Virus record (IMG/VR): IMGVR_UViG_3300031417_000415
Reading direction: 5' to 3' (one strand)
From: a virus
Taxonomy: Duplodnaviria; Heunggongvirae; Uroviricota; Caudoviricetes
DNA: 64,000 bases
Part shown: positions 15,019 through 34,503 of the stretch, piece after piece
Numbering within the stretch: the first letter of the stretch is position 1
How the letters are laid out: every line of letters begins with the position of its first letter
Made by a program: the position numbers and the translations under genes
Notes under the pieces: model-generated
What the model was told of the DNA's origin: nothing
The model's database searches: none
What the model saw: only the letters and a program-made list of their open reading frames with translations

Positions 15019-15212
15019 CACGGACCGATATCAACGGGTAGCATTGCGGATGGCCTACGGAAGGGAAAAGACCCGGAATCCGTCGCCGCGATGCGGCAGG
15101 CCGTCGTCGTCGCCCACGATACGGGCACCCAGCACCGCGAGCATGTCCACGGGAACCGGTCCTCCGGTACGCCCGACCGGCTGCGCGCACGTCCCCTGAA
15201 CGGAGCATCGCC

Positions 15213-17290: not shown

Positions 17291-17310
17291 GTCGCATGTC
17301 CCGATTGCAA

Positions 17311-17321
17311 TTTCAGGATGA
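17311..17321 (+). promoter_or_regulatory. TTTCAGGATGA motif in a divergent intergenic region
   Basis: recurring motif. Confidence 0.3.
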
Positions 17322-17371
17322 TTGTCGCATGCGCCCCGGCATCCATCAACCTCAATGACTCGGAAACGACG

Positions 17372-17674
17372 ATGAGCGTCGACCTCGTGCGCCTGCTGGC
17401 CTCCTCCCTGATCGCCCTCGTGGCGACGACCACGGTCGTATGGCTGCTGCGTCGGCCCTCCGGGCGACGCTCGATCATCCTGGGCTGCACCCTCTCGCTG
17501 GCCTGCATGTCGGTGCCTGCCATGGTAATGGCGTTCGGCCCCCTTCCCGAGACCGAGAGCGTGATCGGCCGTGCCTCGGCGATCATCCCGCCAGCAGAGC
17601 CGTACCGGGAGGTGCCACCCCCAAGCCGACGGGGAGACGTCATCCTGCTCAGGCCGGCATCTGTCTCACGGTAG
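17372..17674 (+). CDS. small membrane protein (100 aa)
   Basis: C-terminal part of a long spurious ORF; two TM helices; followed by a hairpin. Confidence 0.35.
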   Translation: MSVDLVRLLASSLIALVATTTVVWLLRRPSGRRSIILGCTLSLACMSVPAMVMAFGPLPETESVIGRASAIIPPAEPYREVPPPSRRGDVILLRPASVSR

Positions 17675-19864: not shown

Positions 19865-20311
19865 ATGGCACGCAACGTCACGATCGTCGCGGGAACGCTG
19901 GACGACACGACACGCGCCGCGCTCGTGGCGCTGCTCGCACGGCCGCTGCCGGCGATCGTGCGCCGGGCGCTGTCGGCGGCGCGCGACCTCGACGACGGAC
20001 TGACCAGCGCACCCCAGCACTCGCTCTACGGCGTGCTGGAGGCGTTGTACGCCTGGCAGACCAGGGCGATGCCGCAGCTGCAGGACGAGGTGCGCGCGAT
20101 CCACGCGTCGGCGGTCCGCCTGGAGGGGCCGCAGACCGTGCAGACCTGTGCGATCCGCGAGATGCTGGGTCTGGCATCGTACATCGCCGACGGCGGCAGG
20201 GCCGAACGGATCGGCGAGCGCATCGGCACGCTGTGCGGGTCGCTGTCCGAGCTCCGCCAGGGCCCGCTGCTGACGTCGGAGGAGCCGCGCGTCCTGCTCG
20301 GAGCCGCCTGA
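19865..20311 (+). CDS. hypothetical protein
   Basis: start directly after the duplicated GAAAACCAGG. Confidence 0.45.
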   Translation: MARNVTIVAGTLDDTTRAALVALLARPLPAIVRRALSAARDLDDGLTSAPQHSLYGVLEALYAWQTRAMPQLQDEVRAIHASAVRLEGPQTVQTCAIREMLGLASYIADGGRAERIGERIGTLCGSLSELRQGPLLTSEEPRVLLGAA

Positions 20312-20976
20312 TGGACAGGATCCTCAAGAGGATGCTCCCCGGACGTCCATGGGAGGTCGCGGCGCTGGCGCAGGCCAGACGCGGGGCGCTCGAGCTGGTC
20401 GAACGGTCGATGCGGGCCGCGGAAGGCGATGCGCAGGCTGCCCTGCTCGCCGTCTCCCCGGACCATCTGCGCGCGCTGGTCGCCCTGGCCGCGAACCCCG
20501 ACGCGCTGCCCTGCATGTCATGCCATGGAACGGGCTGCGGCTGCGATCCCGAGACAGGGCCGTACACGTGCGAGAACTGCGACGGCATGGGTCTTCTGGA
20601 TCCGGAGCCGGACGAACGAATTCCCGAGGAGGAAAAGGACATGGGGCTGCCCCACATCATGAAGCCGGATACCGGTCTGCTCGAGGAGGCCGGGGACCGG
20701 TGGATGCGCTCGCTGGGCGTGACGATCGAATGCGGAGCCGACCGGATCGAGATCGACGCGCTGCGGTTCGAGGAGCTGGCGATGGCGCTCGGCATCCGGC
20801 ATCTGGCCGTACATCCGCGGACCCGCGAGATCGTCGCGCGCTCGATGCCCGGCGAGAGGCTGTCGGCGCTCGTCGAGCGCAACTGGTCCGCCATCGACTC
20901 CTTCGGCATCTGCGACCTCGCACGCGACGTCCAGAAGCTGTGCGCCGGCGGCGACGTCGCGTGGAGGCGCTCGTGA
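20311..20976 (+). CDS. hypothetical protein with DnaJ-type CxxCxGxG zinc-finger repeats
   Basis: CMSCHGTGCGCDPETGPYTCENCDGMG; TGATG overlap with upstream stop. Confidence 0.45.
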   Translation: MDRILKRMLPGRPWEVAALAQARRGALELVERSMRAAEGDAQAALLAVSPDHLRALVALAANPDALPCMSCHGTGCGCDPETGPYTCENCDGMGLLDPEPDERIPEEEKDMGLPHIMKPDTGLLEEAGDRWMRSLGVTIECGADRIEIDALRFEELAMALGIRHLAVHPRTREIVARSMPGERLSALVERNWSAIDSFGICDLARDVQKLCAGGDVAWRRS

Positions 20977-21650
20977 CAGGCACCCAGATCGACACGATCC
21001 TGCGGGGCATCGAGCGGCGCAGGGCAGGCCAGAGGCGGGCGATCTGGTTCGGCGTCTGCTTCGGGATCGGCGCGCAGTCCATAGGCGTCGTCATGAACTT
21101 CCTGGACTCGTGGCAGCACGGCCTGAAGGCGATCGCCTACGGCGCACTCTGCATGACGATATGGATCCCGATCCTCCTCTACATGCGCAAGACCGCCATC
21201 ATGACGAACGCCTCCGCCATAGTGACCGAGCTCCTCCACGGCATGAACGCGAAGGACCCGGAGCGCGAGGATGCGGACCGTAACGGAGATCCGTTCTCAG
21301 GGCTCCTGTGCAGGCTGGCCATACTGAAGGTGGGCATCCTCGCATGGGGGACCCCCGAGGGCAGGTGGAAGGACGGATGCGACCCCTACCACTCCCACCC
21401 GGACGATCGCCGCCGGCGCCTGATGGAGATGCTGACGATCGCCGCCTGGGTGGATCTGCCGGAAGTGCCATGGAGGACGCGCGTCGACATGATCGCGCTC
21501 GCGCAGATCTGCATCGCCGCCGAGGTCCTCCAGTCGCGCAGCCTGTCGGGGCGCATCCGCAACGTCCTGCTGCGCATCTTCGCGCGCCGGTCGAAGCCGC
21601 GCGACGTCGCATGCCCGGTCCCCGTGGCGACCGGACCGGTCGCGGCATGA
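20973..21650 (+). CDS. membrane protein (GTG start overlapping the upstream stop)
   Basis: TM helices; GTGA overlap. Confidence 0.35.
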   Translation: MTGTQIDTILRGIERRRAGQRRAIWFGVCFGIGAQSIGVVMNFLDSWQHGLKAIAYGALCMTIWIPILLYMRKTAIMTNASAIVTELLHGMNAKDPEREDADRNGDPFSGLLCRLAILKVGILAWGTPEGRWKDGCDPYHSHPDDRRRRLMEMLTIAAWVDLPEVPWRTRVDMIALAQICIAAEVLQSRSLSGRIRNVLLRIFARRSKPRDVACPVPVATGPVAA

Positions 21651-22036
21651 GCGCGCCGCTCGTCATGCGCCATGGCCGGCCTCTGCTGATGTACCACGGC
21701 ACGACCGCTCGGTTCGAGCGGTTCAGCGAGCGTCACTGGGACAGTGATCGGGGCTTCTTCTTCACGCCCCGCCTGGCCTACGCCAGGCAGTATGCCCGCG
21801 GCGAGGGGGGCAGGATCATCTCCGCCCATCTCGCCATGTCCAATCCCTACCGGTGCACCGAGATGGACTGGGGATGGGCGAAGGGCCTGAGCATGGACGA
21901 GGCACGCGAGGCGGGACACGACGGCTACGTCGTCGCCCCCTACAGCCTCGGGACCATGTTCGTCGTCTGGAACCCCGATGCCATCCGCGTCCTCTCGCAC
22001 GACCTGGACTCACAGCAGCACAGGCTGGCCGCATAG
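21647..22036 (+). CDS. hypothetical protein
   Basis: ATGA overlap. Confidence 0.4.
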   Translation: MSAPLVMRHGRPLLMYHGTTARFERFSERHWDSDRGFFFTPRLAYARQYARGEGGRIISAHLAMSNPYRCTEMDWGWAKGLSMDEAREAGHDGYVVAPYSLGTMFVVWNPDAIRVLSHDLDSQQHRLAA

Positions 22037-22059
22037 GCCGGCCAGACAGGAGACACTCG

Positions 22060-22386
22060 ATGTCCATAGTCCCCGCTCGTCCTGGCCGGTCGCGTCAGGC
22101 CGCCGAACCCGAAGACGGTCCTCCAGCGCAGACCTCGGATTTCAGGAGCCTTTCCGCACGAGGCTCGGATCTGCAGGGCTGGCGCAGCTTCGCCTGGGAT
22201 CTGGTCATCATGTGCGCGATCGTACTCGGGGGATCCATGCTTCTGGCGCTGGCCTTCGCCCTGATCGCGCTGACGGCATGGATGGCCGCAGCGATATCCG
22301 CATGGACCCTGGTCGCGACGGTCCCGCTCTCGATAGGCCTGCTTCTGGCGGCCATGCTGGCGACATACAGGTGCATACTCGGCTGA
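22060..22386 (+). CDS. small membrane protein
   Basis: RBS GGAGAC; hydrophobic C-terminal half. Confidence 0.35.
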   Translation: MSIVPARPGRSRQAAEPEDGPPAQTSDFRSLSARGSDLQGWRSFAWDLVIMCAIVLGGSMLLALAFALIALTAWMAAAISAWTLVATVPLSIGLLLAAMLATYRCILG

Positions 22387-22422
22387 ACGACCACGAAACA
22401 GGAATCAGCGAGGGAAAAGCAG

Positions 22423-23046
22423 ATGCCCGAGACATACGGATTCACCCATGCGATCATCAGCCCGTCGACGGACCCCGACGATCCGTTCGTGCTGCACGTC
22501 CACGGCCTGACGGCCGGCGTCGACGGCAAGCCCGATGGCCAGAAGGTCCTGATCGCCACCGTGGACGACGAGCGCCCGATGCTCGCGACCCGGATCCTGC
22601 GGATGCTGCAGGCGCGCGGCATCACGATCGAGGGCGATGCTCTCGCGATCAACATGTCCGAGCCCGACATCTCGTTCCTCACCATGCGCGGATCGCTGCA
22701 CGAGGACGGTTCGGAATGGACCGACCTCGAGGTGCGCTTCGTCGACGGAGAGAAGACAGCGGCGGCCAGCTTCCCCGACGCCTACGAGGGTTTCGCCCGG
22801 GCGATGTACGATCTCCATGGACCCGCGGAGCCAGCATACCGCCGCTTCGCCATGTTCCGCCATCGGCGACACGAGGCGGCGGGAGGATGGGACGACTTCG
22901 TCGAGGGGTTCGACACTCCGGAAGCGGCCAGGGCCGACTGGCGCTGGAGCACGCCCGACCGGCACGGGGATGCGGAGGTCTCGATCGTCGACCTGTCTAC
23001 GATGACCGAGATCGAGAGCAGGAGCCTGCCGTCGCTCGAAGGCTGA
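22423..23046 (+). CDS. hypothetical protein
   Basis: conserved GAGGGAAAAGCAG-ATG motif. Confidence 0.45.
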   Translation: MPETYGFTHAIISPSTDPDDPFVLHVHGLTAGVDGKPDGQKVLIATVDDERPMLATRILRMLQARGITIEGDALAINMSEPDISFLTMRGSLHEDGSEWTDLEVRFVDGEKTAAASFPDAYEGFARAMYDLHGPAEPAYRRFAMFRHRRHEAAGGWDDFVEGFDTPEAARADWRWSTPDRHGDAEVSIVDLSTMTEIESRSLPSLEG

Positions 23047-23069
23047 TACGCATACCGAAGGAAAAACAG

Positions 23070-24203
23070 ATGGGCTTCGCAGACCACTACCCGCTCGCCG
23101 TCTTCGAGGCGGGCTACCGCGCCGGCCAGGCCGGTCGAGACGGCGCCAGCGAGCACTTGGAAGAGATCTTCCTCCCCGCCGTGAAGACGCATCTGCTCCG
23201 GCTCCGGCAGGAAGGGCGTCTCGGCACCGCGGCAGGTCTCGCCGGCCGCGACGTGTGGGCCGCGACCGACTGGAACGAGATGGTCGTCTCCGGGCGGTTC
23301 TCGCGCTGGCTGGTCTCGTTCCTGACGAGCCACGCCTTCCACGGGTCGCACGGCGACGCGGAGCGGGGATCGGTCTTCGACCCCGGCTCTCGGGAACCCG
23401 ACGTCGCTCCCGAGGAACGCATCCGGCGCGCCTGGGAACGCCTGTGCGCGCTGCTGGATGCCGGCACCACCGACCACGCCTTCCGGCTGGAGACCCAGCA
23501 GGACGGCATCACCGGCGACCGGTGCCTGCTGGAGTTCGTCGACTGGAAGCCTGCGCTCATGCGCTGGACCGGCGGCGGCTTCGAGCCCGCGCAGGACATG
23601 GGCGCCATCCCGCTCGCCACGATCGAGATCGACTGCCCGTCGGGCGAGCTGATCCTCACCGACGCGATGACCGCCGGAGACGACGTCTTCCGGGAGGCGA
23701 TCGACCTCGGCGACCGCCGTCACACGGTCGCGTCGCTGAACTCCGACCAGGGCTGCGTCAACTACTCGACCATCGTCGCCGCCGAGTACGGCTTCGGCGC
23801 GGTCGCGACCGACAACACCATGGTCGCGGTGCACCGCCAGGGTGACCGGCTCGTCGTCAGCGAGCGCCATGCCGACGAGGATCTGCGTCTCGACGACGAG
23901 GACGGCGACGTCACCGTGGCGGGCTGGGACAAGGTCGGCACGTTCTGCTGCGACCGCTGGATGGTGGAGATCATCGACCGCCAGGTCGCCGTCGACATCA
24001 TGACGCGCCACGGGACGCAGGACGCATCCGCCGCGCTCGACGCATGGATAGCCGACGAGGACGACGAGGTCGTCGTCGTGAAGATGACGCCCGGACGCTA
24101 TCGCATCAGCTTCGGTCCGGGCTTCTCGCAGAGGTTCGACAGGTCCGCGGCCGGCATCCCGAACGGTCCGGAGCCGTGGCTGCTCATGGAGCGGATCGGC
24201 TGA
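23070..24203 (+). CDS. hypothetical protein (377 aa)
   Basis: conserved GAAGGAAAAACAG-ATG motif. Confidence 0.45.
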   Translation: MGFADHYPLAVFEAGYRAGQAGRDGASEHLEEIFLPAVKTHLLRLRQEGRLGTAAGLAGRDVWAATDWNEMVVSGRFSRWLVSFLTSHAFHGSHGDAERGSVFDPGSREPDVAPEERIRRAWERLCALLDAGTTDHAFRLETQQDGITGDRCLLEFVDWKPALMRWTGGGFEPAQDMGAIPLATIEIDCPSGELILTDAMTAGDDVFREAIDLGDRRHTVASLNSDQGCVNYSTIVAAEYGFGAVATDNTMVAVHRQGDRLVVSERHADEDLRLDDEDGDVTVAGWDKVGTFCCDRWMVEIIDRQVAVDIMTRHGTQDASAALDAWIADEDDEVVVVKMTPGRYRISFGPGFSQRFDRSAAGIPNGPEPWLLMERIG

Positions 24204-24233
24204 GTGACCACCTCGATCACGGAGAGAACCACG

Positions 24234-24629
24234 ATGGACATCGTCGATAGCAACACGACACGCCGCCGGCTCTACGAGCCCGCGACCGCACGCGACATGC
24301 ATCTCTACGGCGAGACGTCGACGATGCCCGGGGACGAGCCGATGCAGCTCGACGGGACGCTGCAGTTCGAGGTCCTGCATCTGGCCGAGATCGGCGGCGA
24401 TGGACAGGCCGACTTCCTCGACGTCGCTCCGATCGGATCCTCGCCTACCGACGTCGGCGCGATCGCGCTGGTGCAGGAGCATCATGACGCCTCGGGCGAG
24501 AGCCGCCCCCTGTGGTTCCTCCGCGGCGCAGGTCGCAGCGGCGAGGAGATCCACGCAGGCTACGGTCATGGCCTGCACGCCATGACGAGGTATCGCATCG
24601 TCATGGTGCGGGGACGGACCGTACGATGA
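24234..24629 (+). CDS. hypothetical protein
   Basis: RBS GGAGAGAA. Confidence 0.4.
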   Translation: MDIVDSNTTRRRLYEPATARDMHLYGETSTMPGDEPMQLDGTLQFEVLHLAEIGGDGQADFLDVAPIGSSPTDVGAIALVQEHHDASGESRPLWFLRGAGRSGEEIHAGYGHGLHAMTRYRIVMVRGRTVR

Positions 24630-25276
24630 CGCCCGGCGGCATCGACGACGGGATCTCGCTCCGCTTCCACCTGATGCGGGACGCCCGCGAGAGCGCCTAC
24701 GACATTCCGCGTAGACGCGACGTCATGGAGACCCTGCGGCGCAGCGCGTGGCCGTGCGCGACGGTCGTCATCTGCTCCGCGCTCGCTCTGATGGCTGCCC
24801 ATGCCGGCCACTACGTCTCCGTCGCGCTCCTCGCCCTGCCCGTCTGGATCGCCTGGTGGCTCCACGGCAGGGACCGCAGGATGTCCGACGACTTCGAGCG
24901 TTCGGGCGTCTGGCAGATGGCGGCCTACGCGATCGTTCGGCACGTCGTCCGCGATCCTGCGGGAAATGACGGCCACGAGGTGCTTGCGGAGATACACCGG
25001 ACGCGCTCGGGACGCGCGCTGGGCTACGACGACGTCGCCCGGCTGATCCACCTCTCGCGGATAGTGCCGCTGCGCGCCAGGCTGCTGGTGCTGTCGTATC
25101 TCGAGCTGATGCTCCTCGCCCATGCGGAGCGCCTGCGAGCCGACGCGCTGTACCGCACGGACCGGCTGGACGACGACGAGATACGTCGCATCAGGACGAA
25201 GCTCCGGCAGATGCCGGGGCGGGGCCGCAGGCCCATGTCGGTCGCGATGCGGCAGCCGGATCAGAGAACAGCCTAG
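24626..25276 (+). CDS. membrane protein
   Basis: ATGA overlap; TM helices. Confidence 0.4.
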   Translation: MTPGGIDDGISLRFHLMRDARESAYDIPRRRDVMETLRRSAWPCATVVICSALALMAAHAGHYVSVALLALPVWIAWWLHGRDRRMSDDFERSGVWQMAAYAIVRHVVRDPAGNDGHEVLAEIHRTRSGRALGYDDVARLIHLSRIVPLRARLLVLSYLELMLLAHAERLRADALYRTDRLDDDEIRRIRTKLRQMPGRGRRPMSVAMRQPDQRTA

Positions 25277-25289
25277 AAGGGAAAACGAG

Positions 25290-26276
25290 ATGGGAGTGTC
25301 GCTCGCCAAGGAACCGTACGTGCATGACGCGCGCCCGTCGTACGACCGAAGGACCATGATCGGCGCCGCGCTCCTGCACCTGCAGGCGACCTCCTCGGCG
25401 TCGGCGCTGAGGAACAGCGCCACGTGGGCCGCGCCGCTGCTGCTCGGTCTGTGCGGTCTGGACCGCGACGACCTGGGAAGCGTCGCCCCGATCGAGTGGG
25501 ACGAGGATCCCGCGGATCGGAGGACGGCGCTCGACGAGGCGCTGCCGATCCTGATCACGACGCTGTACTCGCCTGCCCCGTGCAGCGTGCATGACCTGCG
25601 CCTTCAGGTGCTCGACGTCGTCAGGCCGCTCCGTGGAGAACTGCTCGATGCACACCGTCGTGCGTGGTACGACGACCAGATCGCGCTCGCCTTCGCGGAC
25701 CGCGTCTGGGAGGACCGGCCGACAGGACCGATAGCCAGGGCGGCCAGCATCGCCTCGTACGGCGTCACGCTCCTGATCGCGCTGCTCTGCGCGGTGGTGG
25801 CGCTTCCGCTCATCCTCGCCGGCATGACCGACCGTCCGCGTCTCCGCGACGCAGGAAACCGCCGCGATGCGCGATCGGCCATCGGCGCGCCGGACACGGA
25901 GGATGGAATCCCGCCTCTGATGGCCGCGATCGGCGACGCCGCGCTGCTTGCCGATCTCGGGCGGGCACGTTCGGATCTGCGCCGAAATGTCGAACGAAGC
26001 CCTGGGAACGGAGACGCCGCCGAGCGCCTCGAGAAGCACCTGGCAGACTTCACCCGTCGGGTCGACGCCGCCCAGAAGGCGGGATCGATGTCCCCGACGC
26101 TGCGTCGGGAGAGCGCGGCTGCACTCCAGGCGCTGATCCGCTCCATGGACGCCGTCTCGTCGCGCGACTCGCGCCAGGCCGCACAGGATCTCGAGACCGG
26201 CATACGATTCATCGCAAGTGCCCACGGCACGACCGACGACGCACTGTCGCTAGAGGGCCTGCGCGCAGCCGCCTGA
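25290..26276 (+). CDS. membrane protein (328 aa)
   Basis: conserved GAAGGGAAAACGAG-ATG motif. Confidence 0.4.
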   Translation: MGVSLAKEPYVHDARPSYDRRTMIGAALLHLQATSSASALRNSATWAAPLLLGLCGLDRDDLGSVAPIEWDEDPADRRTALDEALPILITTLYSPAPCSVHDLRLQVLDVVRPLRGELLDAHRRAWYDDQIALAFADRVWEDRPTGPIARAASIASYGVTLLIALLCAVVALPLILAGMTDRPRLRDAGNRRDARSAIGAPDTEDGIPPLMAAIGDAALLADLGRARSDLRRNVERSPGNGDAAERLEKHLADFTRRVDAAQKAGSMSPTLRRESAAALQALIRSMDAVSSRDSRQAAQDLETGIRFIASAHGTTDDALSLEGLRAAA

Positions 26277-26318
26277 ACCCCATTGCACGATCATCCACCT
26301 CCATATAGGAAGACCATC

Positions 26319-26357
26319 ATGCTCGCGATCGATCTCGACACCGGCCTCGGTACCTAG
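26319..26357 (+). CDS. possible 12-codon leader peptide (MLAIDLDTGLGT) followed by a 9 bp stem hairpin
   Basis: RBS GGAAGACC; hairpin GACCGCCCC..GGGGCGGTC at 26358-26383, upstream of the aaRS-like gene. Confidence 0.2.
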   Translation: MLAIDLDTGLGT

Positions 26358-26438
26358 ACCGCCCCTCTCCAGACGGGGCGGTCACGAAGTCGCGCAGCCA
26401 GCGCGCACCGACCGATCCCCGATCAAGAGAGAACGAAC

Positions 26439-27191
26439 ATGTCCTATGCACTCTACGACGACCTCGCCGGGCTCCGTACCTGGCGACAGAACGAACTCGC
26501 CCTGCGCCGCCGTATCCGCGACGCCATCGTCGAACGGGTCGAGACGACCGCCCGCGACATCAACCGCGCCTGGGCCTTCGAGGAGGTCGAGGCGCCGCTG
26601 ATGATGCCGCTCGAGCGGATGAGCTCGGCCTACACCTCCGACGACGTCTTCATGCTGCGGGACGCGCCCGGGGGGACGAAGGAATGGGCGATGCGCGCCG
26701 AGACCACGGACGGGACGTACTGCGCCGCCGTCCAGATCCTGCGCACCACCAGCGTCAAGGCGCCGCTGTGCGTCTGGCAGATGGGGACCAGCTTCCGCCG
26801 CGAGCTGAACGACGGGGCGACCGCCGCGCGACTGCGGTTCAACGCCTTCACGCAGCTCGAGCTGCAGATGGTGCACTATGCAGACACCGCGGCCGACATC
26901 GCGGTGCCGATCCGGGAGGCGCTGGTGCCGCTGGTGGGAAGGCTCACCGGGCTCGAGACGCGCCTCGTCGCCTCCGACCGGCTGCCCTCGTACGCGACCG
27001 AGACGATCGACATCGAGTGCCGGCTGCCGGACGTCCCCGAGAGCGCCAGCGAGGACGCCCGGTGGCGCGAGGTCGCCAGCACGTCGCGGCGCACCGACTT
27101 CCCGACGCCGCCCGGATACAAGCCCCTCAAGGTCTTCGAGATCGCGTTCGGGATGGACCGCCTCGTGGCCCTGGCCAACGGGACGCTCTGA
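26439..27191 (+). CDS. class II aminoacyl-tRNA synthetase-like catalytic-core protein (standalone; AsnA/EpmA/HisZ-like architecture)
   Basis: motif 2 GTSFRRELNDGATAARLRFNAFTQLELQ and motif 3 FGMDRLVALA; 250 aa with no anticodon-binding domain. Confidence 0.5.
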   Translation: MSYALYDDLAGLRTWRQNELALRRRIRDAIVERVETTARDINRAWAFEEVEAPLMMPLERMSSAYTSDDVFMLRDAPGGTKEWAMRAETTDGTYCAAVQILRTTSVKAPLCVWQMGTSFRRELNDGATAARLRFNAFTQLELQMVHYADTAADIAVPIREALVPLVGRLTGLETRLVASDRLPSYATETIDIECRLPDVPESASEDARWREVASTSRRTDFPTPPGYKPLKVFEIAFGMDRLVALANGTL

Positions 27192-27473
27192 ACGACGACG
27201 GTTTACGCATGGCATCGATGATGGCATGATGCTCGGGCTGCGGGTCGGGAGAAGCGCTCCCAATCTCCGAGCTGGACAAGTGAGTGGAAGGGTCCAGCCG
27301 CCGAATGACCGCCGACATGCAGGCAGTCGCCCGAGAGGATAGGCGAAACTCACGCTATCCGGCGTAGCGTCCGGAAACGCAGCGACCGCGGACGGTCCGC
27401 ATCTCCACCTGGAGGCGCGGGCCGTCGGTGCGATGGCGCAGCGACCTATCATCCAAACACATGCCTACAGCAG

Positions 27474-27929
27474 ATGGAGCATCGCATGACACGCAAGCTG
27501 TCGCAGGATCAGGGCGAACTGCGCCTGGTGCCGGTGGAGCCGTCGGATGACCTGGTCGCCGAGATCCTGTACAACATCAACCGCAAGCGGGCGAACGGGG
27601 ATGACCTGACGGCCTTCGACGTTCGCGAGGTAGTCCGCAACCTGCACTGGAACGGACGCTACGTCCCGAAGTCGGGCGCAGCCCAGCCGCGAGGCATGGA
27701 CTTCCTGCAGGACCTCGTGAGGGAGCTCTCGGCAGAGGCGCCGGCCGACCTGAAGGCGCAGGCCGTCGAGATCCTGCGGAAGCATCTCTGGTACGACCTG
27801 AGCGACGCCGAGATCGAGAATGGCAGCTCTGTCTTCGCGCACGAGGCGGTCGCGGCGCTCGTCGCGGCGCTGCGGATCGTGCGGTTCGCGGACTTCGACG
27901 CGCCGACGCCAGAAGCAGGCGCGGCATGA
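27474..27929 (+). CDS. hypothetical protein
   Basis: ORF. Confidence 0.4.
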   Translation: MEHRMTRKLSQDQGELRLVPVEPSDDLVAEILYNINRKRANGDDLTAFDVREVVRNLHWNGRYVPKSGAAQPRGMDFLQDLVRELSAEAPADLKAQAVEILRKHLWYDLSDAEIENGSSVFAHEAVAALVAALRIVRFADFDAPTPEAGAA

Positions 27930-28375
27930 CCCGCGTATCCTCGCCGGCCGAGATCGAGGAGTTCCTCGACGGTCGACGCGACGTCGTCGTGCTCAGCGAA
28001 GGCCAGGCTGCCGGCCGAAGCATCCGGAACTACGATCCGGAGTTTCTCCTGCGCCCCTTCGCCGTGAGCGTCGAGGGGTTCGGCACCTTCACCTTCCATG
28101 CGCCGACGCGGGCCCGTGCCATGGCGGACGCGTGGAACGCCTACGTGGGCGCCGGGTACGACATGCCCTACGGCGGCTTCATGAAGATCGCCCAGGTACG
28201 CTCGACCGTGCCAGGGGAGCGGTTCGGCGAGCCGATCCTGGTGGGCGGCCGCAGGGCGTTCTACGTGTCATGGGACAGCCACTACGTGCAGTTCGCATCG
28301 CCGGGCGCGACCCGCTACGGCAACTCGCATCCGCTCGACGTCACCTCCGTTACCGGAGAGCCGTTCGCGCGTTGA
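27926..28375 (+). CDS. hypothetical protein
   Basis: ATGA overlap. Confidence 0.4.
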   Translation: MTRVSSPAEIEEFLDGRRDVVVLSEGQAAGRSIRNYDPEFLLRPFAVSVEGFGTFTFHAPTRARAMADAWNAYVGAGYDMPYGGFMKIAQVRSTVPGERFGEPILVGGRRAFYVSWDSHYVQFASPGATRYGNSHPLDVTSVTGEPFAR

Positions 28376-28416
28376 GCGTCGATATCCACCTGGACATCCA
28401 CAGAACGGGGTCAGAC

Positions 28417-29619
28417 ATGCAGGCCATATCCCTGTCCAAGACGAGCGCCAGCCTCGATCGCCTCGGCGCCGCCATCATGCCGCGCACTACAAGACATCAC
28501 GGGATCGTCGTGAACCCCAAGACCCGCCAGCCCGTCGATCGCGAGATCGGAGAGATCCGCCACGTGCGAATCGATCTGCGCGGCCACCGTCGCGCGGACG
28601 CCGACATGCAGGGAGCGGAGGTCATGCTGGCGCTCCGCATCCTCTACGACGACATCGCGCCCGCCGCCGAGCAGGTAATCGCCAGGCGGGTCGGCGCCAG
28701 GACTCTTCCTCCCAGGCTCGCCCCCACGGCGTCGGATCTGACCATCGAATCGTTCGTGCGTCCGGTCGCGGCACGGATCGAGGAGCGGGCCGTCTCCATA
28801 TGGGCCGAGGTCGACAAGGAGACGGCCTGGGCCTACGAGAAATCGGGACGCCAGTCGTTCGGACCTCCGCTCGCCTCGGAGCCGGAGATCCGCCGTGACG
28901 CGATCGTCGTCAAGGGTGCGGGACTGGAAGCCCTTAGTCGAGGAGCGATCGCCGAGATCGCGCGCCGGCTGGAGCGACAGCACGACGACCTGCTACAGCA
29001 GCGGAGGACCAGGCGTCGAAAGATGACGCTTGCCGGGGCGGTCATGGCACTGATCGCGATAATCTGCCTGGGCGGTACGCTGATGGGATCCCTCATGATC
29101 CCCGTCATGCTGGCGAGCCTTCTCGTCATGGAGCTCGCGCTCAGTCCCTCGGGAGAGCGTCTTGCCGCCGCATGGAGGGATTCGCTTCGCGACATCCGCT
29201 CGGGTCGACGCCGCATCGTGACGTCGGAACCGGTCCAGGAGGCCGGATCGCAGATCCTGGAGGCGATCGGGCGACACGCTCCCGTCAGTGCAGTCGCCGC
29301 CGAGGAGGCCGTCGCCCGCATCCGGCGACTGCGAATCCTCATCGACGGTTCGACGGATCCATCGGCCCACTCGGAGATCGCATCGGTCGAGGGCGACCTG
29401 CGTGCCACGATGCAGGCCTATGCGCGTCCCGCGCGCATCGCCGTGGGCGACGAGTGCCGTGCGCTCGCGACCGATCTCGCCGCGGCGACGATCCAGATCG
29501 GACAGCGGGCCGAATCCGTGCGTCGACGCCTTCTCGACGCGGCACGGGACGGCTTCGATACGCAGCGGCGCTATCTCGCGAGCAAGGACGACGAGGGGCT
29601 TCTGGCTCCCGTAGCCTGA
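28417..29619 (+). CDS. membrane protein (400 aa)
   Basis: internal ATG; central TM helices. Confidence 0.4.
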   Translation: MQAISLSKTSASLDRLGAAIMPRTTRHHGIVVNPKTRQPVDREIGEIRHVRIDLRGHRRADADMQGAEVMLALRILYDDIAPAAEQVIARRVGARTLPPRLAPTASDLTIESFVRPVAARIEERAVSIWAEVDKETAWAYEKSGRQSFGPPLASEPEIRRDAIVVKGAGLEALSRGAIAEIARRLERQHDDLLQQRRTRRRKMTLAGAVMALIAIICLGGTLMGSLMIPVMLASLLVMELALSPSGERLAAAWRDSLRDIRSGRRRIVTSEPVQEAGSQILEAIGRHAPVSAVAAEEAVARIRRLRILIDGSTDPSAHSEIASVEGDLRATMQAYARPARIAVGDECRALATDLAAATIQIGQRAESVRRRLLDAARDGFDTQRRYLASKDDEGLLAPVA

Positions 29620-29761
29620 CCCGGTATCCACGAGCAACGCAGCCGACGCCCATACCGGCCGGCGGGTGATGGCTCGCGTCCGCATCTCGCGGACCGGCGA
29701 CCAGGGTCCAGGGAAGAATGAGTGTTCCCAAGGTGGGAACGGAAAATGAAGGAATTCAGAA

Positions 29762-30109
29762 ATGAGCAAGCCGATCCCCGCGTCCGTCGAAGCCAACCGT
29801 GCGAAGTTCCGCGAGCAGGGCGTCGCCAGCAAGGCGGCACGCGCGCAGAAGCACGCAGAGCTGCTGGCCAGCCAGAAGGCGCTGGGCGCCGCGAACCGCG
29901 AGTCGCGCGCGACCGCGCACGCGCAGCTGATCGAATCGCAGAAGGCCGTCGGCGTCGCCAACGCGCCCGTCAAGGCGCAGGCCAAGGCCGACCGCATCGC
30001 CGGCGCGACCGCGCGCAACGAGCAGCTGTCGGCAGAGGCAGCCGAGCGCAAGTCGGCGCGCATGTCGGCACACGCCGAGCGCAACGAGTCGATGAAGAAG
30101 GTCGGCTGA
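29762..30109 (+). CDS. small Ala/Lys/Arg-rich helical protein, paralog B
   Basis: paralog of the 10453..10803 product; 3' 130 nt nearly identical. Confidence 0.5.
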   Translation: MSKPIPASVEANRAKFREQGVASKAARAQKHAELLASQKALGAANRESRATAHAQLIESQKAVGVANAPVKAQAKADRIAGATARNEQLSAEAAERKSARMSAHAERNESMKKVG

Positions 30110-30117
30110 CCTCTTCG

Positions 30118-30143
30118 GGCGCCGTCCTCACAGGACGGCGCCT
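30118..30143 (+). terminator. hairpin GGGCGCCGTCC-TCACA-GGACGGCGCC
   Basis: same stem sequence as the hairpins at 10846 and 30613. Confidence 0.4.
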
Positions 30144-30321
30144 GCGCATCCCGCCAGTCGGGATGAGAGATCCGCCCCGGCGACGGGGCGGCAGGAAGGA
30201 GAGAGACGGCACGACAGGCGGCAATTCGAGAAGACGGTGTTCCAGATCGCGGCAGGAGTTGCAGCGACACCCCGGCGTCCGGCCGGGACTGGGCTGCATC
30301 GTTCCCATCGAGGAACCTGCC

Positions 30322-30609
30322 ATGTCCGACGTCAAAGACCTTCTGCCCTTCCCGGTCCGCATCATCGAACGCGAGGCGACTTCGGTCGTCTGGTTCGACA
30401 GGGTCTCCGAGATCGAACGGCACTTCAAGCTCTCCGAGCCGCTGAATGCCGACGAGATCGAGCAGGTCGTCAAGATCGCCCGGGACGGGGTCGTCCACGC
30501 ATGCATCTGTCCGTTCTCGGAGGATGTTCACGGTATCCGCAGTCTGATGGCAGACGCTTCGGCAGAGCATCTCGACCGCGACTACTGCGAGCGCTGCGAC
30601 GACATCTGA
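30322..30609 (+). CDS. small Cys-containing hypothetical protein
   Basis: internal ATG; followed by a GGCGCCGTCC hairpin at 30613-30636. Confidence 0.35.
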   Translation: MSDVKDLLPFPVRIIEREATSVVWFDRVSEIERHFKLSEPLNADEIEQVVKIARDGVVHACICPFSEDVHGIRSLMADASAEHLDRDYCERCDDI

Positions 30610-30805
30610 GCCGGCGCCGTCCTTCGGGACGGCGTCGCTCTACACGCCCACGGACATCGCGTCCGGCGGACAGCCTTCCGGCTGGATCATGACAGGCCAG
30701 CAGGAAGCGAGATCCTCCGAGAGGAGGGGAAAACGAAGAAGGTCGCCCGGCCTACCGGGGGACATTGTGCAACGCCCCCATGGGCACTTACGAGGACATG
30801 ACAGC

Positions 30806-31327
30806 ATGACCGACACCAAGCAGAGCAACGGCCGCCCCTGGACCCTGATGGTCGGCGCCACCACCCCATTCAACGAGGGCATGGGCTCGAACGACCAGCC
30901 CTACCTCAACTTCCGCGCCGACATCGAGACATCGCGGGGCGTCAAGAACCGCTTCGTGTCGGTGTTCAACACGCTGCGCTTCCCTAGCCTGATCGACGAC
31001 GTCAAGCAGGCGCTCGTCTCGGGTGCTGCGAAGCTCACCGTGCGCTTCGACTACGACAAGGGCGAGACCGTGAAGGTGCTCGGCGTCGGGTACGTCGACT
31101 TCCGCAAGTCGGCGGACGGCACGCCGCCGATCGATAGCGCTCCGGCCGGGACGCAGGCCGTCGAGCTTCCCCTCGAGAGCACGGTCGAGGAACCGGTCAT
31201 CGACACGCCAGTCGCAGAGGAGCCCGTCATCGAGGCTCCTGTCCAGGAGCCGATCGCGCAGGCCGATCCGATGGAAGGCGTCGTCGTCGAGATGAAGAAG
31301 CCACGTCGCCGCCGCAAGGCCGCATAG
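30806..31327 (+). CDS. hypothetical protein with acidic PV-rich linker and basic KKPRRRRKAA tail
   Basis: ORF followed by a strong terminator. Confidence 0.4.
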   Translation: MTDTKQSNGRPWTLMVGATTPFNEGMGSNDQPYLNFRADIETSRGVKNRFVSVFNTLRFPSLIDDVKQALVSGAAKLTVRFDYDKGETVKVLGVGYVDFRKSADGTPPIDSAPAGTQAVELPLESTVEEPVIDTPVAEEPVIEAPVQEPIAQADPMEGVVVEMKKPRRRRKAA

Positions 31328-31335
31328 GACACGAA

Positions 31336-31370
31336 GGGCGCTCTCCATACGGAGAGCGCCCCTTTTTTAT
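31336..31370. terminator. strong bidirectional rho-independent terminator GGGCGCTCTCC..GGAGAGCGCCC + T7
   Basis: 11 bp stem plus T-run between convergent genes. Confidence 0.6.
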
Positions 31371-31407
31371 ATGCAGCATGTCAAAGCGACGGAAGGCCCG
31401 GCACGGG

Positions 31408-32019
31408 TCACATGCCGTTCGCGTCCTTGTAGGCCTGCCACGCCTTCGCACGTTCGGCTGCGCTAGGAGGAACCGGCATCGGACGCATCTTCTCCTGCGG
31501 CAGCGGCCCCGACGAGCGAAGGGTCGCGACGGCCTGGTATACCGGCGCCTTCAGACCAGCTGTGCTGGCCTGCGAGCAGACGCGGCGGATCTCCGACGGC
31601 GCGACGCGCGACCTGATGGCCGGAACCTTCCCCGTAGGCGGACGGTCGTCGCGATCGGACCGACGTACCTCGATCACGGCGTAGTTCGCCCGGCCGCAGT
31701 GGAGATCGATCCTGTACACGTCGTATCCCGCCCCGCCGTTGAGCACCACGATGCGGCCGCCGGTAGCGTCGACGTCGATGAGCGCCGGTACTGATCTCCC
31801 CCCGACGACGTCCATCCGGACCGGCTTCCAGACGCCGATGCGGATCCAGGGAAGACCTACGGCCTGCTCCGCGGTCCCGCGCGCGAACGCGATGCCGCCA
31901 GCCGACACATGGCGAGGCGCCGACACCGGTGGCGTCACGGTGGAGCGGTCCCCGCCCGGACCGCAGGCGCAGGCAGACAGCGCAAGCCCCAGACCCGCTA
32001 CGATGCCGATCCTGTTCAT
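31408..32019 (-). CDS. lipoprotein (lipobox LSAC)
   Basis: minus-strand ORF; MNRIGIVAGLGLALSACACGP signal. Confidence 0.45.
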   Translation of the reverse strand: MNRIGIVAGLGLALSACACGPGGDRSTVTPPVSAPRHVSAGGIAFARGTAEQAVGLPWIRIGVWKPVRMDVVGGRSVPALIDVDATGGRIVVLNGGAGYDVYRIDLHCGRANYAVIEVRRSDRDDRPPTGKVPAIRSRVAPSEIRRVCSQASTAGLKAPVYQAVATLRSSGPLPQEKMRPMPVPPSAAERAKAWQAYKDANGM

Positions 32020-32093
32020 CCTCAAACTCCCTTGCAATCGGACTGTTTTAGGATAAGCGTCAGGATTCCACAAACGGGTTTCGGGGCGGAAAG

Positions 32094-33638
32094 ATGCGGT
32101 CGGTTTTCATTGCGAGGATGGTCCTCGCCGGTGCTTCCATACAGATGGCTGCGTCAAGCCCGGCGTGGGCAGCCATGCAGACGTCGCCCGATCAGGAATC
32201 GGTGCTCATGAGGCGCCCCATCGACGACCGCATCGGCCGCGCGGACATCCCGAGCAACAATCCCAACCCGAACCCCAATCCCGGCGGCGGCACAAACCCG
32301 ACCGACCCGACCGACCCGACCGACCCGACGGATCCGACGGATCCCAGCATTCCCACAGAGCAGCCGATCGAGGGCGGCAGCCACGATCCCGACCTAGTCA
32401 ACGACCCCGGCGATCCGGGCTGGGCTCCAGGCACCTACCAGTGGACCACAGGTCCATGGCAGGGTGCAGCGGTATGCGGCCAGAAGTCGCAGCTGACCCG
32501 CGACGTCGGCTGCCAGCGCATCATGCCCTTCTTCGGCGGCGGCGGCCCGATCGGCCGTATCGATCCCACGCTGACGGGCAAGCCCGCGGTGATGAACGCC
32601 TCGTGGGGGATGAGCACGGCGGACGGGCCACGGCTGTCGAACGGAGTATACGACCCCGCATCTTCGGGCGTGAAGCGGAAGCTGGCGCAGTTCGGAGGCC
32701 CGGACAGCGGAGGCGACTTCGTGGTGGAGGACGTGCCGGTCTCCTACTGCAGGGAGGTCGAGAACGAGATCGGACCGGCTCCCATCAACTCCTACAGCGG
32801 CACGAAGGGCGGCTGCCAGTACGATCCGGTGAAGACCGGATCGTCGGACTGGGCGCTGCCGCCCTACGCACCGGGAACGGCGAGCTGCTCGGCAAGTGCG
32901 TTCCGGATCAACCAGTACCGCTGCCAGGCATCGGACGGAAGTTCGGCTCCGCTGGCCTACTGCCTCGAGAACCTCTCCGAGGGCGGCGTCCGCAACGGTC
33001 AGCTGGTCACGCCCGAATACGGCAACTTCTCGGGCTGCACCGCACGCTGGCTCACGTACGTCGAGGACAACTACTGCCACAAGTCGGGAGACCTCTCCAA
33101 CGGATACGGCGACGACGGCCCCGTGCATACGGCCAACTACCAGTCGCGCTGCACACGGTCCGACGGCAAGGAGCTGACGGGCATCGACGAGGCCGCCTGT
33201 GCCGCCAGCGACCGTCCCTTCGACGGAGTGCAGGTCGTCGGAGCGTGCCACAAGCAGTACGCGGTCGACTACGAATATGCCTGCTTCGTGGACAATAACG
33301 ATGTCGTCGTCCACCAGGAGATCGGGTTCTACGACTACTACACGAAGGGCACCAAGATGTGCAACGACGCGGGCGCCACGTGCTGCTCGCTGCGTCAGGT
33401 CTCCAACAACAACTACAGCGGTGCTCCCTACCGTGCGTACGAGGTGATCGGCACGAAGGGCAAGGCGGTGTCGAATCCCGGATGGTACTTCGACGATCGC
33501 GCCAAGCGCATCAGCAGCGAGGGCGAGGGACCGTACTTCTACAACTACGGCGGCGGTCGTGGACGGTTCGAGCCCGACCAGTATGTCGGGGGCGTGATCG
33601 ATCCCGGTCCGGGCAACGGCGGCGGTCCCGACAACTGA
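32094..33638 (+). CDS. secreted Cys-rich protein with (PTD)5 repeat
   Basis: signal peptide; PTDPTDPTDPTDPTDPS; many Cys and Trp. Confidence 0.5.
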   Translation: MRSVFIARMVLAGASIQMAASSPAWAAMQTSPDQESVLMRRPIDDRIGRADIPSNNPNPNPNPGGGTNPTDPTDPTDPTDPTDPSIPTEQPIEGGSHDPDLVNDPGDPGWAPGTYQWTTGPWQGAAVCGQKSQLTRDVGCQRIMPFFGGGGPIGRIDPTLTGKPAVMNASWGMSTADGPRLSNGVYDPASSGVKRKLAQFGGPDSGGDFVVEDVPVSYCREVENEIGPAPINSYSGTKGGCQYDPVKTGSSDWALPPYAPGTASCSASAFRINQYRCQASDGSSAPLAYCLENLSEGGVRNGQLVTPEYGNFSGCTARWLTYVEDNYCHKSGDLSNGYGDDGPVHTANYQSRCTRSDGKELTGIDEAACAASDRPFDGVQVVGACHKQYAVDYEYACFVDNNDVVVHQEIGFYDYYTKGTKMCNDAGATCCSLRQVSNNNYSGAPYRAYEVIGTKGKAVSNPGWYFDDRAKRISSEGEGPYFYNYGGGRGRFEPDQYVGGVIDPGPGNGGGPDN

Positions 33639-33744
33639 TCATAGTCGCCCGAGCACGGACGGACGGGCCGGCATCCATCGGATGCCGGCCTTTTCCATGC
33701 CCGATACGCGGAACGGACCAGAACAGGCATCAAGGAGGAAAAAG

Positions 33745-34503
33745 ATGACGGACGTGCATTCCGACCCATGGCACCAGCTGGCCGAAGACATCGAGAACGG
33801 CTGCGCGGAGTTCAACCGCGACCGCATCGACGCGCGGCAGAGGCCGTTCCCCTTCCCCGTAGACGTGGTGCGTCGGCTGCTGCTCGTCCTGAAGGACGCG
33901 AGGCGCCCGCTTCCGGCATTCGACATCGTGACCGACGGTCCGGAATGGCGCCTCATGCTGCGCTGGACGCGGATCGGCGGCGAGGCGTACGTCACGGCTT
34001 CCAGGGACGACGTGATCGACGTTCGCGTCGCGCTGGACGGGCGCGTACTCGTGGACACGCAGGAGGCGCGCTATGCTTCGTTCGATCCGCAGCCGCTGCT
34101 GGACGCGCTGGACCACTTCACCGCGCTCAAGCAGGTCCTCGTGGTACGCCGTGACCTGAAGATGCGCCAGGGCAAGGCCTGCTCGCAGGCATCGCATGCT
34201 TCCGGCGAATTCATGCGCGAGCAGATCGTCGCGGCCATCCACCGCCACGACGATCTCAACTTCAGCGACGACGAGATCGAGTGGATGACGCTGGGCATGG
34301 CCAAGATCACCGTCCGGGCCGACACCGTAGAGCAGTTCGAGCAGGTGCAGGCCGACGCGCTGGCCCGGGGACTGAAGGTCCGTACCATCACGGACAGCGG
34401 GCGCACGGAGTTCGCCGGGGTGCCGACCATCACCGCGCTGGCGATCGGACCGACGCGCTCAGCCTATGTCGATCCTATCACTGGTGCAATGACCCTGCTG
34501 TAG
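33745..34503 (+). CDS. two-domain protein with C-terminal peptidyl-tRNA hydrolase PTH2 domain
   Basis: conserved AAGGAGGAAAAAG-ATG motif; LVVRRDLKMRQGKACSQASHAS and RTITDSGRTEFAGVPTITALAIGP match PTH2. Confidence 0.5.
   Translation: MTDVHSDPWHQLAEDIENGCAEFNRDRIDARQRPFPFPVDVVRRLLLVLKDARRPLPAFDIVTDGPEWRLMLRWTRIGGEAYVTASRDDVIDVRVALDGRVLVDTQEARYASFDPQPLLDALDHFTALKQVLVVRRDLKMRQGKACSQASHASGEFMREQIVAAIHRHDDLNFSDDEIEWMTLGMAKITVRADTVEQFEQVQADALARGLKVRTITDSGRTEFAGVPTITALAIGPTRSAYVDPITGAMTLL

Follow-up and report, generated by a model that had tools for sequence, protein, structure and literature searches.

A stand-alone GlyRS-like catalytic core preceded by a conserved glycine-codon leader in a jumbo phage

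The stretch of viral DNA considered here, IMG/VR record IMGVR_UViG_3300031417_000415 (64 kb, ~67% GC; the whole stretch is called the window below), carries on its plus strand a gene for a 250-amino-acid (aa) protein that resembles the catalytic core of a class II aminoacyl-tRNA synthetase (aaRS) and is closest to glycyl-tRNA synthetase (GlyRS). The gene is preceded by a short open reading frame (ORF), the mini-ORF, and a stable hairpin, which together form a leader that recurs upstream of related genes. A promoter-like pair of elements sits in the 42-nucleotide (nt) gap between the stop codon of the upstream gene (26274–26276) and the mini-ORF. The features of the locus are as follows.

26283–26310, plus strand: promoter-like pair, TTGCAC (26283–26288) and TATAGGA (26304–26310), from by-eye alignment
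26319–26357, plus strand: leader mini-ORF, a conserved ORF of 12 codons and a TAG stop, encoding MLAIDLDTGLGT
26357–26383, plus strand: hairpin 1, a 9-bp stem with two inner pairs, from folding and covariation
26384–26426, plus strand: C-rich, G-poor spacer (C 42%, G 26%) from hairpin 1 to the main ribosome-binding site
26391–26405, plus strand: hairpin 2, CGCGC-AGCCA-GCGCG (−9.2 kcal/mol, z −1.8, weak alone)
26439–27191, plus strand: stand-alone GlyRS-like class II catalytic core, 250 aa, from sequence
26574–26609, plus strand: motif 1 of the core (residues ~46–57)
26694–26714, plus strand: RAETTDG block of the core (residues 86–92)
26790–26867, plus strand: motif 2 of the core (residues 118–143)
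27138–27176, plus strand: motif 3 of the core (residues 234–246)

The first-pass annotation proposed a class II catalytic core with motifs 2 and 3, and this fold was recovered, with the antiparallel beta-sheet core and motifs 1, 2 (fRxE..R), and 3 (GxGxDR). Searched singly, the window protein matched Pfam tRNA-synt_2b weakly (E = 7.7e-4, under the threshold of that model), and its NCBIfam matches were GlyRS PRK04173 (1.7e-12), HisRS (1.7e-7), and HisZ (4.5e-3). A family alignment was built from 43 members with 49–94% identity to the window protein. GlyRS was the best NCBIfam model for 43/43 of them, all far under the full-length cut-off, and the family profile matched GlyRS chains at 1e-14. 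The comparison figures listed for other proteins were 19.3 for ThrRS, 18.8 for the carrier-protein ligase Bll0957, 18.6 for methanogen-type SerRS, 17.6 for HisRS, 16.7 for both Pol gamma B and HisZ, 15.9 for the PylRS core, 14.9 for AsnA, and 14.8 for GenX/EpmA. Among class IIa enzymes, the catalytic domain is closest to GlyRS of the dimeric type. The kinship with AsnA, EpmA/PoxA, or HisZ that had been suggested from the sequence was not borne out: the AspRS/LysRS-type core that marks AsnA and EpmA (PoxA, GenX) was not found, and the HisZ model TIGR00443 gave 16 bits against a 272-bit cut-off, matched 15/43 members, always under GlyRS, and the catalytic residues are intact.

Forty-seven columns of the alignment are invariant in all 43 sequences. 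Among them are P53 in motif 1, R120, E122, and R133 in motif 2, G238 and R241 in motif 3, and the block R86-x-E88-T-T-x-G92, so that the ATP-binding arginines, the R-x-E of motif 2, and the G-x-D-R of motif 3 are all retained. E88, E141, and E234 are likewise invariant; E88 aligns on E188 and E141 on E239 of T. thermophilus GlyRS, and E234 aligns on the Glu of LELSFGVDR in N. equitans GlyRS. E188, E239, and E359 of the T. thermophilus enzyme, with Ser361 nearby, are residues that we take to form the glycine-binding pit, and the three glutamates of the phage protein would make up the acidic glycine pocket of a dimeric-type GlyRS. As judged from the alignment, the fold, the class II ATP-binding residues, and this predicted pocket are intact, and the active site looks functional.

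Dimeric (alpha2-type) GlyRS, represented by the enzymes of N. equitans (5z5e), T. thermophilus (1ati), and Mycobacterium (8sld), has the same class IIa fold and motifs 1–3 and has in common with the phage core the signatures RxETxxG, FRxE...R..F.Q.E, (Y/H)Y..T.D(I/L)E, E..S/G...RTD, and E-x-[SA]-F-G-x-D-R, in addition to the three glycine-pocket glutamates. The phage core, in contrast, is about half the size, has Ala for Ser and Gln for Glu at two positions, is almost confined to phages, and has neither insertion domains nor, as the first-pass annotation had also recognized, an anticodon-binding domain; the protein ends 4 residues past the motif 3 helix. Because it is without an anticodon-binding domain and scores far under the family cut-off (47 bits against 312 bits for full-length GlyRS), it stands outside the GlyRS equivalog. 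Taken together, its sequence indicates that the protein is a phage-specific minimal catalytic core of a dimeric-type GlyRS that has lost the insertions and the anticodon-binding domain. It also differs in type from the alpha2beta2 GlyRS expected in alphaproteobacterial hosts. The nearest functional precedent is PylSc of Desulfitobacterium (2zni, 279 residues), which is also core-only and anticodon-blind but belongs to another subclass, uses another amino acid, and has a dedicated tRNA, whereas the window gene has no such tRNA linked to it.

The mini-ORF contains two Gly codons, GGC (26343–26345) and GGT (26349–26351). Hairpin 1 starts at the G of the TAG stop, 8 nt past the first base of the GGT codon, and its arms are GACCGCCCC (26357–26365) and GGGGCGGTC (26375–26383). 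It folds at −21.2 kcal/mol (z = −4.55), and 0/200 shuffles fold as well; with the mini-ORF stop 81 nt upstream of the main ATG, the arrangement is as originally described. No Rfam match was found at E<=1 in 20000–34000. In the window, L065, and L007, the mini-ORF ATG lies exactly 120 nt before the main ATG and in frame with it, with the TAG as the sole stop between them. Fusion of the two ORFs by readthrough or frameshifting was considered and rejected: the offset is 92–126 nt over the relatives and falls in all three frames, and because it varies in this way the in-frame relation is a coincidence.

The leader is kept in 15 relatives or loci with 65–98% protein identity, one of them held out, and the architecture of the upstream intergenic region is retained while the sequences differ. 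The mini-ORFs, of 6–12 codons, and the hairpin arms of the aligned groups are listed here.

Window, L065, L007: M[LF][AT][IT]DLDTGLGT-TAG; arms GACCGCCCC / GGGGCGGTC
L005: MTTRHITNGLGM-TAG; arms GGCCGCC / GGCGGCC
L076: MNTYITHGVGM-TAG; arms GGCGGCCCC / GGGGTCGCC
L067, L068: MTWMVRQA[AG]RG-TGA; arms GGCCGCTCCC / GGGAGCGGTC (L067)
L069, L070, L078, L081: MTW....GRGR-TAG; arms GGCCGTTTCC / GGAAGCGGTC and variants
L074, L071 (L071 at 49% GC): MNGRGI-TAG; 12-bp bulged stem
L085 (truncated by its contig): ...FRGRRR-TAG; arms GGCCGGCTCC / GGGACCGGCC

The N-terminal codons of the mini-ORF vary freely, and its frame is kept because the indels (3, 6, and 18 nt) are all multiples of three. The ending follows the pattern G-[LRV]-G-(x)-stop, in which the second Gly codon is GGT in all 15 leader instances; GGT is the sole invariant codon of the mini-ORF, and two Gly codons are present in most leaders. 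Pairing in the hairpin begins 8 nt from GGT, even where the stop is shifted by one codon (L067/L068); the exception is L085, with 14 nt. Over 13 leaders, 91.5% of hairpin 1 cells are paired and 4/9 pairs are changed on both sides, giving a covariation score of 0.400 against 0.246 ± 0.031 in shuffles (0/500 reach it), and sliding the register collapses the signal. Each leader-bearing locus gave exactly one match to a covariance model of the core, in every case immediately 5' of this gene, and 883 kb contained no other match; a looser regular-expression scan of 971 kb likewise found no leader elsewhere. The held-out, Reyranella-associated L087 scored 49.8 bits with the covariance model and has MTWMVLQCGRGR-TAG followed by a hairpin. 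These data indicate that the mini-ORF and hairpin are a conserved element specific to this gene. Four clade members, in which the gene overlaps the upstream operon gene, have no leader (L008, L079, L086, and L089). In L068, a second short frame, ...GLRRGRGR-TGA, followed by a 10-bp hairpin, lies ~1 kb upstream of the gene (2869–2920, plus strand); it resembles a leader ending, was missed by the covariance model, and may be an ordinary gene end.

When the leaders were compared by eye with the mini-ORF ATG as anchor, TTGCNN or GTGACT at about −36 and TA 10–12 nt before the ATG were present in 10/12 distinct leaders, and the spacer between the two elements diverges. The pair resembles sigma-70-type promoters of alphaproteobacteria; a strict scan with the E. 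coli promoter consensus found nothing. The promoter-like pair, if real, would start the transcript at or next to the mini-ORF ATG and would thereby render the mini-ORF leaderless. The six-codon leaders of L074 and L071 differ in having a clear Shine-Dalgarno sequence. Downstream of hairpin 1, the C/G ratio of the spacer is 1.3–3.5 in 13/13 leaders, and 9/13 are in the top 6% of same-length windows of their own locus, a composition that is compatible with a Rho-loading site. Hairpin 2 has a counterpart of 4–7 bp and other sequence at the same place in L005, L076, L069, and L078, and L074 and L071 lack one; only part of the clade has this hairpin.

The Gly codons of the enzyme gene set it apart from the rest of the window. 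In the likely genes of the window, Gly is encoded by GGC (60%), GGA (16%), GGG (15%), and GGT (9%, the rarest). GGC and GGT (together GGY) are both read by tRNA-Gly(GCC), GGT through wobble. The 11 Gly codons of the enzyme gene comprise 9 GGG, 2 GGA, 0 GGC, and 0 GGT, that is, 0/11 GGY against a background of 69% (multinomial p<5e-6), and the other 12 amino-acid families show normal preferred codons in this gene (each p > 0.05). Among 60 ORFs, this one alone has zero GGY; the next lowest fraction is 0.36. Eight distinct leader-bearing relatives, L071 (49% GC) included, have 0–1 GGY and 7–12 GGG, four others avoid GGY partially (0.27–0.42), and the fraction is 0.70–1.00 in the four members without the leader. 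The difference between genes with and without a leader gave p = 0.0035 in a Mann-Whitney test made before L089 was added and not corrected for phylogeny. Independent avoidance was seen in distant lineages (L047, 0/8; L061, 0/10; L054, 0/5), where no analogous leader was seen. Since its Gly codons are only GGG and GGA, the enzyme gene would be translatable without tRNA-Gly(GCC). In L071, where a tRNA-Met adjoins the gene and a transfer-messenger RNA (tmRNA) and tRNA-Gly(UCC) are nearby, the phage Gly(UCC) tRNA reads GGG and GGA, the sole Gly codons of the enzyme gene; the tmRNA gene is at 3518–3894 (plus strand, tag ANDNNGMEIALAA), and the tRNAs around the mini-GlyRS gene (Met, Val, Pro, and Gly(UCC)) are at 724, 1702, 5279, and 5422. 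A gene whose active site is expected to activate glycine, and whose translation has no need of tRNA-Gly(GCC), fits an enzyme that has to be produced while Gly-tRNA(GCC) is lacking. That the gene avoids GGY while its leader conserves a GGY codon is our strongest argument that the acceptor would be tRNA-Gly and that the leader would sense its charging.

We therefore favor, with moderate confidence, a minimal, anticodon-blind GlyRS that would be induced through its leader upon shortage of Gly-tRNA(GCC). The core enzyme would make glycyl-adenylate and then glycylate the 3' end of tRNA-Gly without reading the anticodon, supplementing or replacing the host GlyRS in infection. Its expression would be governed by the promoter-like element, the short and probably leaderless ORF, and the hairpin at the ORF stop. 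When Gly-tRNA(GCC) is short, a ribosome whose A site holds GGT would stall at the foot of the hairpin and change downstream events so that more enzyme is made, either by keeping the leader RNA open (a translational route) or by masking the C-rich spacer from Rho (a tnaC-like route); when Gly-tRNA is plentiful, the ribosome would terminate, the hairpin re-form, and expression drop. We commit only to the general model, in which a ribosome stalled at GGT and abutting the hairpin would raise expression.

Several observations weigh against this interpretation. On the regulatory side, no U-tract follows the hairpin (CACGA or similar follows in most leaders), which makes a classical intrinsic attenuator unlikely; an intrinsic terminator was also rejected on the strength of a consensus scan that gave no match at the site. 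No conserved alternative pairing (antiterminator) was found over the leaders, and in thermodynamic modeling a ribosome masking the Gly codons did not consistently make the main ribosome-binding site more or less accessible. Of 11 freely folded leaders, 8 have the main start codon paired, and a ribosome placed at the beginning of the mini-ORF frees it in 9/11. The start-to-start helix that underlies this effect, P0, is significant only in the MTW-type leaders L067–L069 and not in the window. A second long-range helix, P1, between the Gly-codon segment and the segment before the ribosome-binding site, is convincing in L005, L076, L078/L081, and L085 (a 10-bp perfect match), and its significance is limited to part of the relatives; the window version does no better than shuffled sequence (p about 0.7), and P1 was not used. 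The first leader Gly codon is replaced by Ala in L067, the GGY fraction is 0.58–0.77 in the leader-bearing L067, L068, L087, and L085, and the leader instances represent few independent events since they are phylogenetically related. On the enzyme side, Ala236 is invariant where GlyRS has Ser beside the third Glu, and Gln143 is invariant, two positions past E141, where GlyRS has Glu; because of these two departures, the substrate could be other than glycine. The protein may bind tRNA weakly or not at all, since it lacks the anticodon-binding and insertion domains. The amino acid, the acceptor, and catalysis itself are all matters that we infer from sequence.

The leader shares with trpL/hisL/pheST, ermC/cat, and tnaC a short ORF with a cognate codon before its stop, followed by a stable structure upstream of the gene, and with tnaC a C-rich, G-poor spacer past the leader stop. 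Upstream ORFs with a 5'-terminal AUG offer a further leader-type comparison (PMC4965119). Unlike classical attenuators, it has only one or two sensor codons, is probably leaderless, and lacks a U-tract terminator, a mutually exclusive antiterminator, and any alternative pairing demonstrable in all members; the short ORF with cognate codons is the part of the classical arrangement that is present, with GGT in 15/15 leaders. Thus, of the likeness to attenuation control pointed out in the first-pass annotation, a conserved, gene-specific leader with an invariant Gly codon stands, whereas a classical terminator attenuator does not. The known control of bacterial GlyRS is by T-box riboswitch (PMC4574755). 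We found no description of this protein family and no published Gly-codon leader for any GlyRS in the literature searched, and we regard the leader as leader-peptide control in the broad sense that matches no described family.

The genomic neighborhood of the gene was compared all-against-all over 24 clades. In many loci, the gene lies inside or abuts tRNA arrays, for example with neighboring tRNAs for Gly-GCC/Gly-CCC (L044 and L050), Ser (XbC2 and L054), Glu (L022), or Val (L060). The only recurrent neighbors were an RNA ligase-like protein (5 clades) and Pth2 (3 clades); the top neighbor cluster was rejected because it was the antisense frame of the mini-GlyRS gene itself. In the window, Pth2 and Pnkp were confirmed at these positions.

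33682–34503, plus strand: ORF of 273 aa with a Pth2 domain (PF01981, 5.5e-26) at ~34126–34500, residues 149–273
48712–49662, plus strand: Pnkp-type phosphatase and kinase (PF25109 and AAA_33), 14 kb past Pth2

The Pth2 ORF has either a later true start or an N-terminal extension. An RNA ligase, which had been listed with these two genes, was not found in the window by tblastn with a single probe taken from a homologue's neighbor. A concerted tRNA or translation theme, as first suggested, is still plausible given Pth2 and Pnkp in the window and the RNA ligase, Pth2, and tRNA arrays near homologues. The tRNA arrays and the RNA ligase-like, Pth2, and Pnkp neighbors mark the gene context as one of tRNA and translation, with no sign of a carrier protein.

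This context bears on the alternative that survives best, in which the protein is a tRNA-independent ligase of glycine or a small amino acid that passes the adenylate to a carrier-protein thiol, a protein side chain, or a small molecule, like carrier-protein ligases, AsnA, and EpmA. Amino acid:carrier-protein ligases have a zinc-binding Cys/Glu/Cys site and an adjacent carrier-protein gene; Bll0957 and Atu2573, truncated SerRS homologues, derive from zinc-dependent methanogen-type SerRS and are encoded beside carrier proteins. The phage family differs from them in both respects and was not assigned to this group: it has no invariant Cys for the zinc site held in common with methanogen-type SerRS, and no universal partner gene, carrier protein, or other small neighbor recurs beside it over the 24 clades. 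Its position in the tRNA arrays of many phages also argues against such a ligase, and the codon avoidance and Gly-codon leader would make sense only if the product fed back on decoding. We consider a non-tRNA ligase rather unlikely.

A second alternative keeps the synthetase and reinterprets the leader as an autoregulatory operator bound by the enzyme itself, as ThrRS binds the thrS leader. The core ACGGAC[GT][AC]GGTA and the hairpin would then be a putative protein-binding site, with the mini-ORF incidental or only modulating access. The core is indeed conserved at the nucleotide level, third codon positions included, and is identical in L074 (64% GC) and L071 (49% GC), and the 10–12 bp hairpin stem is about the length of an acceptor/T minihelix. 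Against this, there is no NCCA-like sequence past the hairpin, the loop and stem sequences are not conserved, and the avoidance of GGY by the gene would be left unexplained, which makes an operator improbable in our view.

It is very unlikely that the protein is a non-catalytic class II paralogue (a regulator, a decoy, or an accessory subunit like HisZ or the DNA polymerase gamma accessory subunit), with the hairpin as terminator of the preceding gene and the mini-ORF as a chance frame. All catalytic residues are invariant over 43 diverse sequences, unlike those of degenerate paralogues. The hairpin covaries, lies downstream of a conserved promoter-like element, and has no U-tract; the mini-ORF has kept its frame through 3- and 18-nt indels together with its GGT, and the combined motif occurs nowhere else in the 883–971 kb scanned.

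In the Phosso-like clade of huge phages (34–39% identity), a tRNA with the amber-suppressor anticodon CUA is the sole tRNA in the 12-kb locus and lies 70–2000 nt upstream of the gene, on the same strand, in nine loci.

L003, 4579–4654: CUA tRNA
L025, 5525–5599: CUA tRNA
L027, 4990–5065: CUA tRNA
L030, 5521–5596: CUA tRNA
L031, 5760–5835: CUA tRNA
L032, 4877–4950: CUA tRNA
L033, 4038–4111: CUA tRNA
L037, 5857–5933: CUA tRNA
L040, 5521–5595: CUA tRNA

TAG accounts for only ~5% of stops in these loci, and their coding density is normal under the standard code; the clade could hold a natural pair of an anticodon-blind synthetase and a suppressor tRNA, or the arrangement could be simple synteny. 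As an account of the family, dedicated charging of a phage suppressor tRNA(CUA), a natural orthogonal pair placing Gly at amber codons, is the least probable explanation and a highly unlikely one, since it rests on a single-clade feature that amounts to one evolutionary event, since those tRNAs have the discriminator G73 and variable acceptor stems, which also fits charging by host GlnRS, and since the role is impossible in the window, where ~45% of likely genes have TAG as their stop and ARAGORN found no tRNA gene in 64 kb.

The preferred reading, an anticodon-blind GlyRS under control of a Gly-codon leader, can be extended. Tentatively, and with the odds set against it, leader and enzyme could form a rescue circuit for one isoacceptor: the leaderless mini-ORF, through its wobble-read GGT codon beside the hairpin, would detect the shortage of Gly-tRNA(GCC) and switch on the GGC/GGT-free gene of the anticodon-blind GlyRS, phage Pth2 would strip acetyl-Gly from the tRNA, and translation would be restored. 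The circuit could be triggered by nucleases directed at tRNA-Gly or by abortive-infection toxins of the host that, like AtaT2/TacT, acetylate Gly-tRNA-Gly. In the case of AtaT2, a GNAT toxin, ribosomes stall at Gly codons once Gly-tRNA-Gly is acetylated, and Pth frees the tRNA so that it can be charged again (PMC7470980), which gives a published rationale for such a phage system. A link between the mini-GlyRS and toxins of this type is speculation on our part.

The family comprises 205 clusters at 90% identity and 206 clusters at 50% identity (E<1e-10), nearly all of 210–260 aa and without an extra domain, on contigs of up to 587 kb. IMG/VR holds 57 loci with a relative, mostly on contigs of 100–560 kb. 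BFVD contains uncharacterised short homologues only; PHROGs gave no match for the protein and PADLOC no defense-system match. Bacterial and archaeal genomes, searched as one per species (185,579 species), contain a single real match, on an 84-kb scaffold in a Reyranella isolate assembly, and the family is almost exclusive to jumbo and huge phages. That single match is L087 (NZ_VOHA01000032.1, Reyranella sp. CPCC 100927); the scaffold is probably a jumbo phage carried with or infecting Reyranella, which, if so, is a candidate host for the L087 clade. A possible exception to the phage-only distribution is a 13-kb contig (JGI 3300047160) that encodes protein P0048 among cellular-looking neighbors (an MFS transporter, a lipocalin, VIT1, a PMT_2 glycosyltransferase, and a methyltransferase); P0048 recurs on the 1-kb contig L085, there with a leader.

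No close DNA match to the window was found among deposited phages. Protein relatives of the ORF at 26439–27191 occur in the Caulobacter Bertelyvirus phages CcrBL9/CcrSC (52%), Brevundimonas vB_BpoS phages (51%), Sinorhizobium phage Phosso (39%), Xanthomonas phage XbC2 (34%), and two uncultured phages of ~635 kb, where the gene is annotated as hypothetical, 'aminoacyl-tRNA synthetase', 'serine-tRNA synthetase', or 'RNA synthetase class II'. Because the genomes of all these phages are >300 kb, the window is part of a jumbo phage; its host is probably alphaproteobacterial. Huge phages carry up to 15 aaRS genes each, and one phage CRISPR spacer is directed against host GlyRS; Al-Shayeb et al., who report this, have nothing on truncated aaRS forms.

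Other genes were seen near the homologues and in the window. L074 has homologues of CysRS and of the alternative ribosome-rescue factor ArfA nearby (3604–5067 and 18842–18991), L005 has a Thg1-family enzyme (15095–15934), L079 has a YqeY/GatB-like protein (12812–13228), and a cREC_REC (PF20274) gene lies within a few kb in L005, L006, L074, L076, and L079. In L086, one of the loci without a leader, a PAS/HWE histidine kinase gene is followed by a response-regulator gene whose end is overlapped by the mini-GlyRS gene (1112–3004); on this phage-like contig, the enzyme gene appears to come third in a two-component operon. TnpB/IS605 OrfB-like genes are present on the minus strand of the window at 13061–14320 (HTH_OrfB_IS605, OrfB_IS605, and Cas12f1-like TNB) and of the related contig L076 at 16378–17661. 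A 962-aa ORF in the window (5457–8345, plus strand) has a YadA-like membrane-anchor domain at its end (PF03895, 5e-10); this is the anchor of trimeric autotransporter adhesins and is unexpected for a phage.

If the enzyme charges tRNA-Gly, it would be a natural minimal synthetase of ~240 residues that does without anticodon reading and, if the rescue circuit is also true, among the smallest natural class II synthetases charging a canonical tRNA. Such an enzyme would be informative about how small an aaRS can be and still charge specifically, about models of early synthetases, and about the design of compact orthogonal pairs. The leader, located in phages and acting on a translation gene, would represent a new class of control element that senses amino acids or tRNA, and a gene that avoids the codons of one isoacceptor while its sensor uses them would be an unusually clean signature of single-tRNA feedback. 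Seen alongside the Pth2, Pnkp, and RNA ligase genes of these genomes, the system suggests that jumbo phages protect or commandeer the Gly-tRNA pool, which would be a plausible counter-measure to the known toxins that target Gly-tRNA-Gly.

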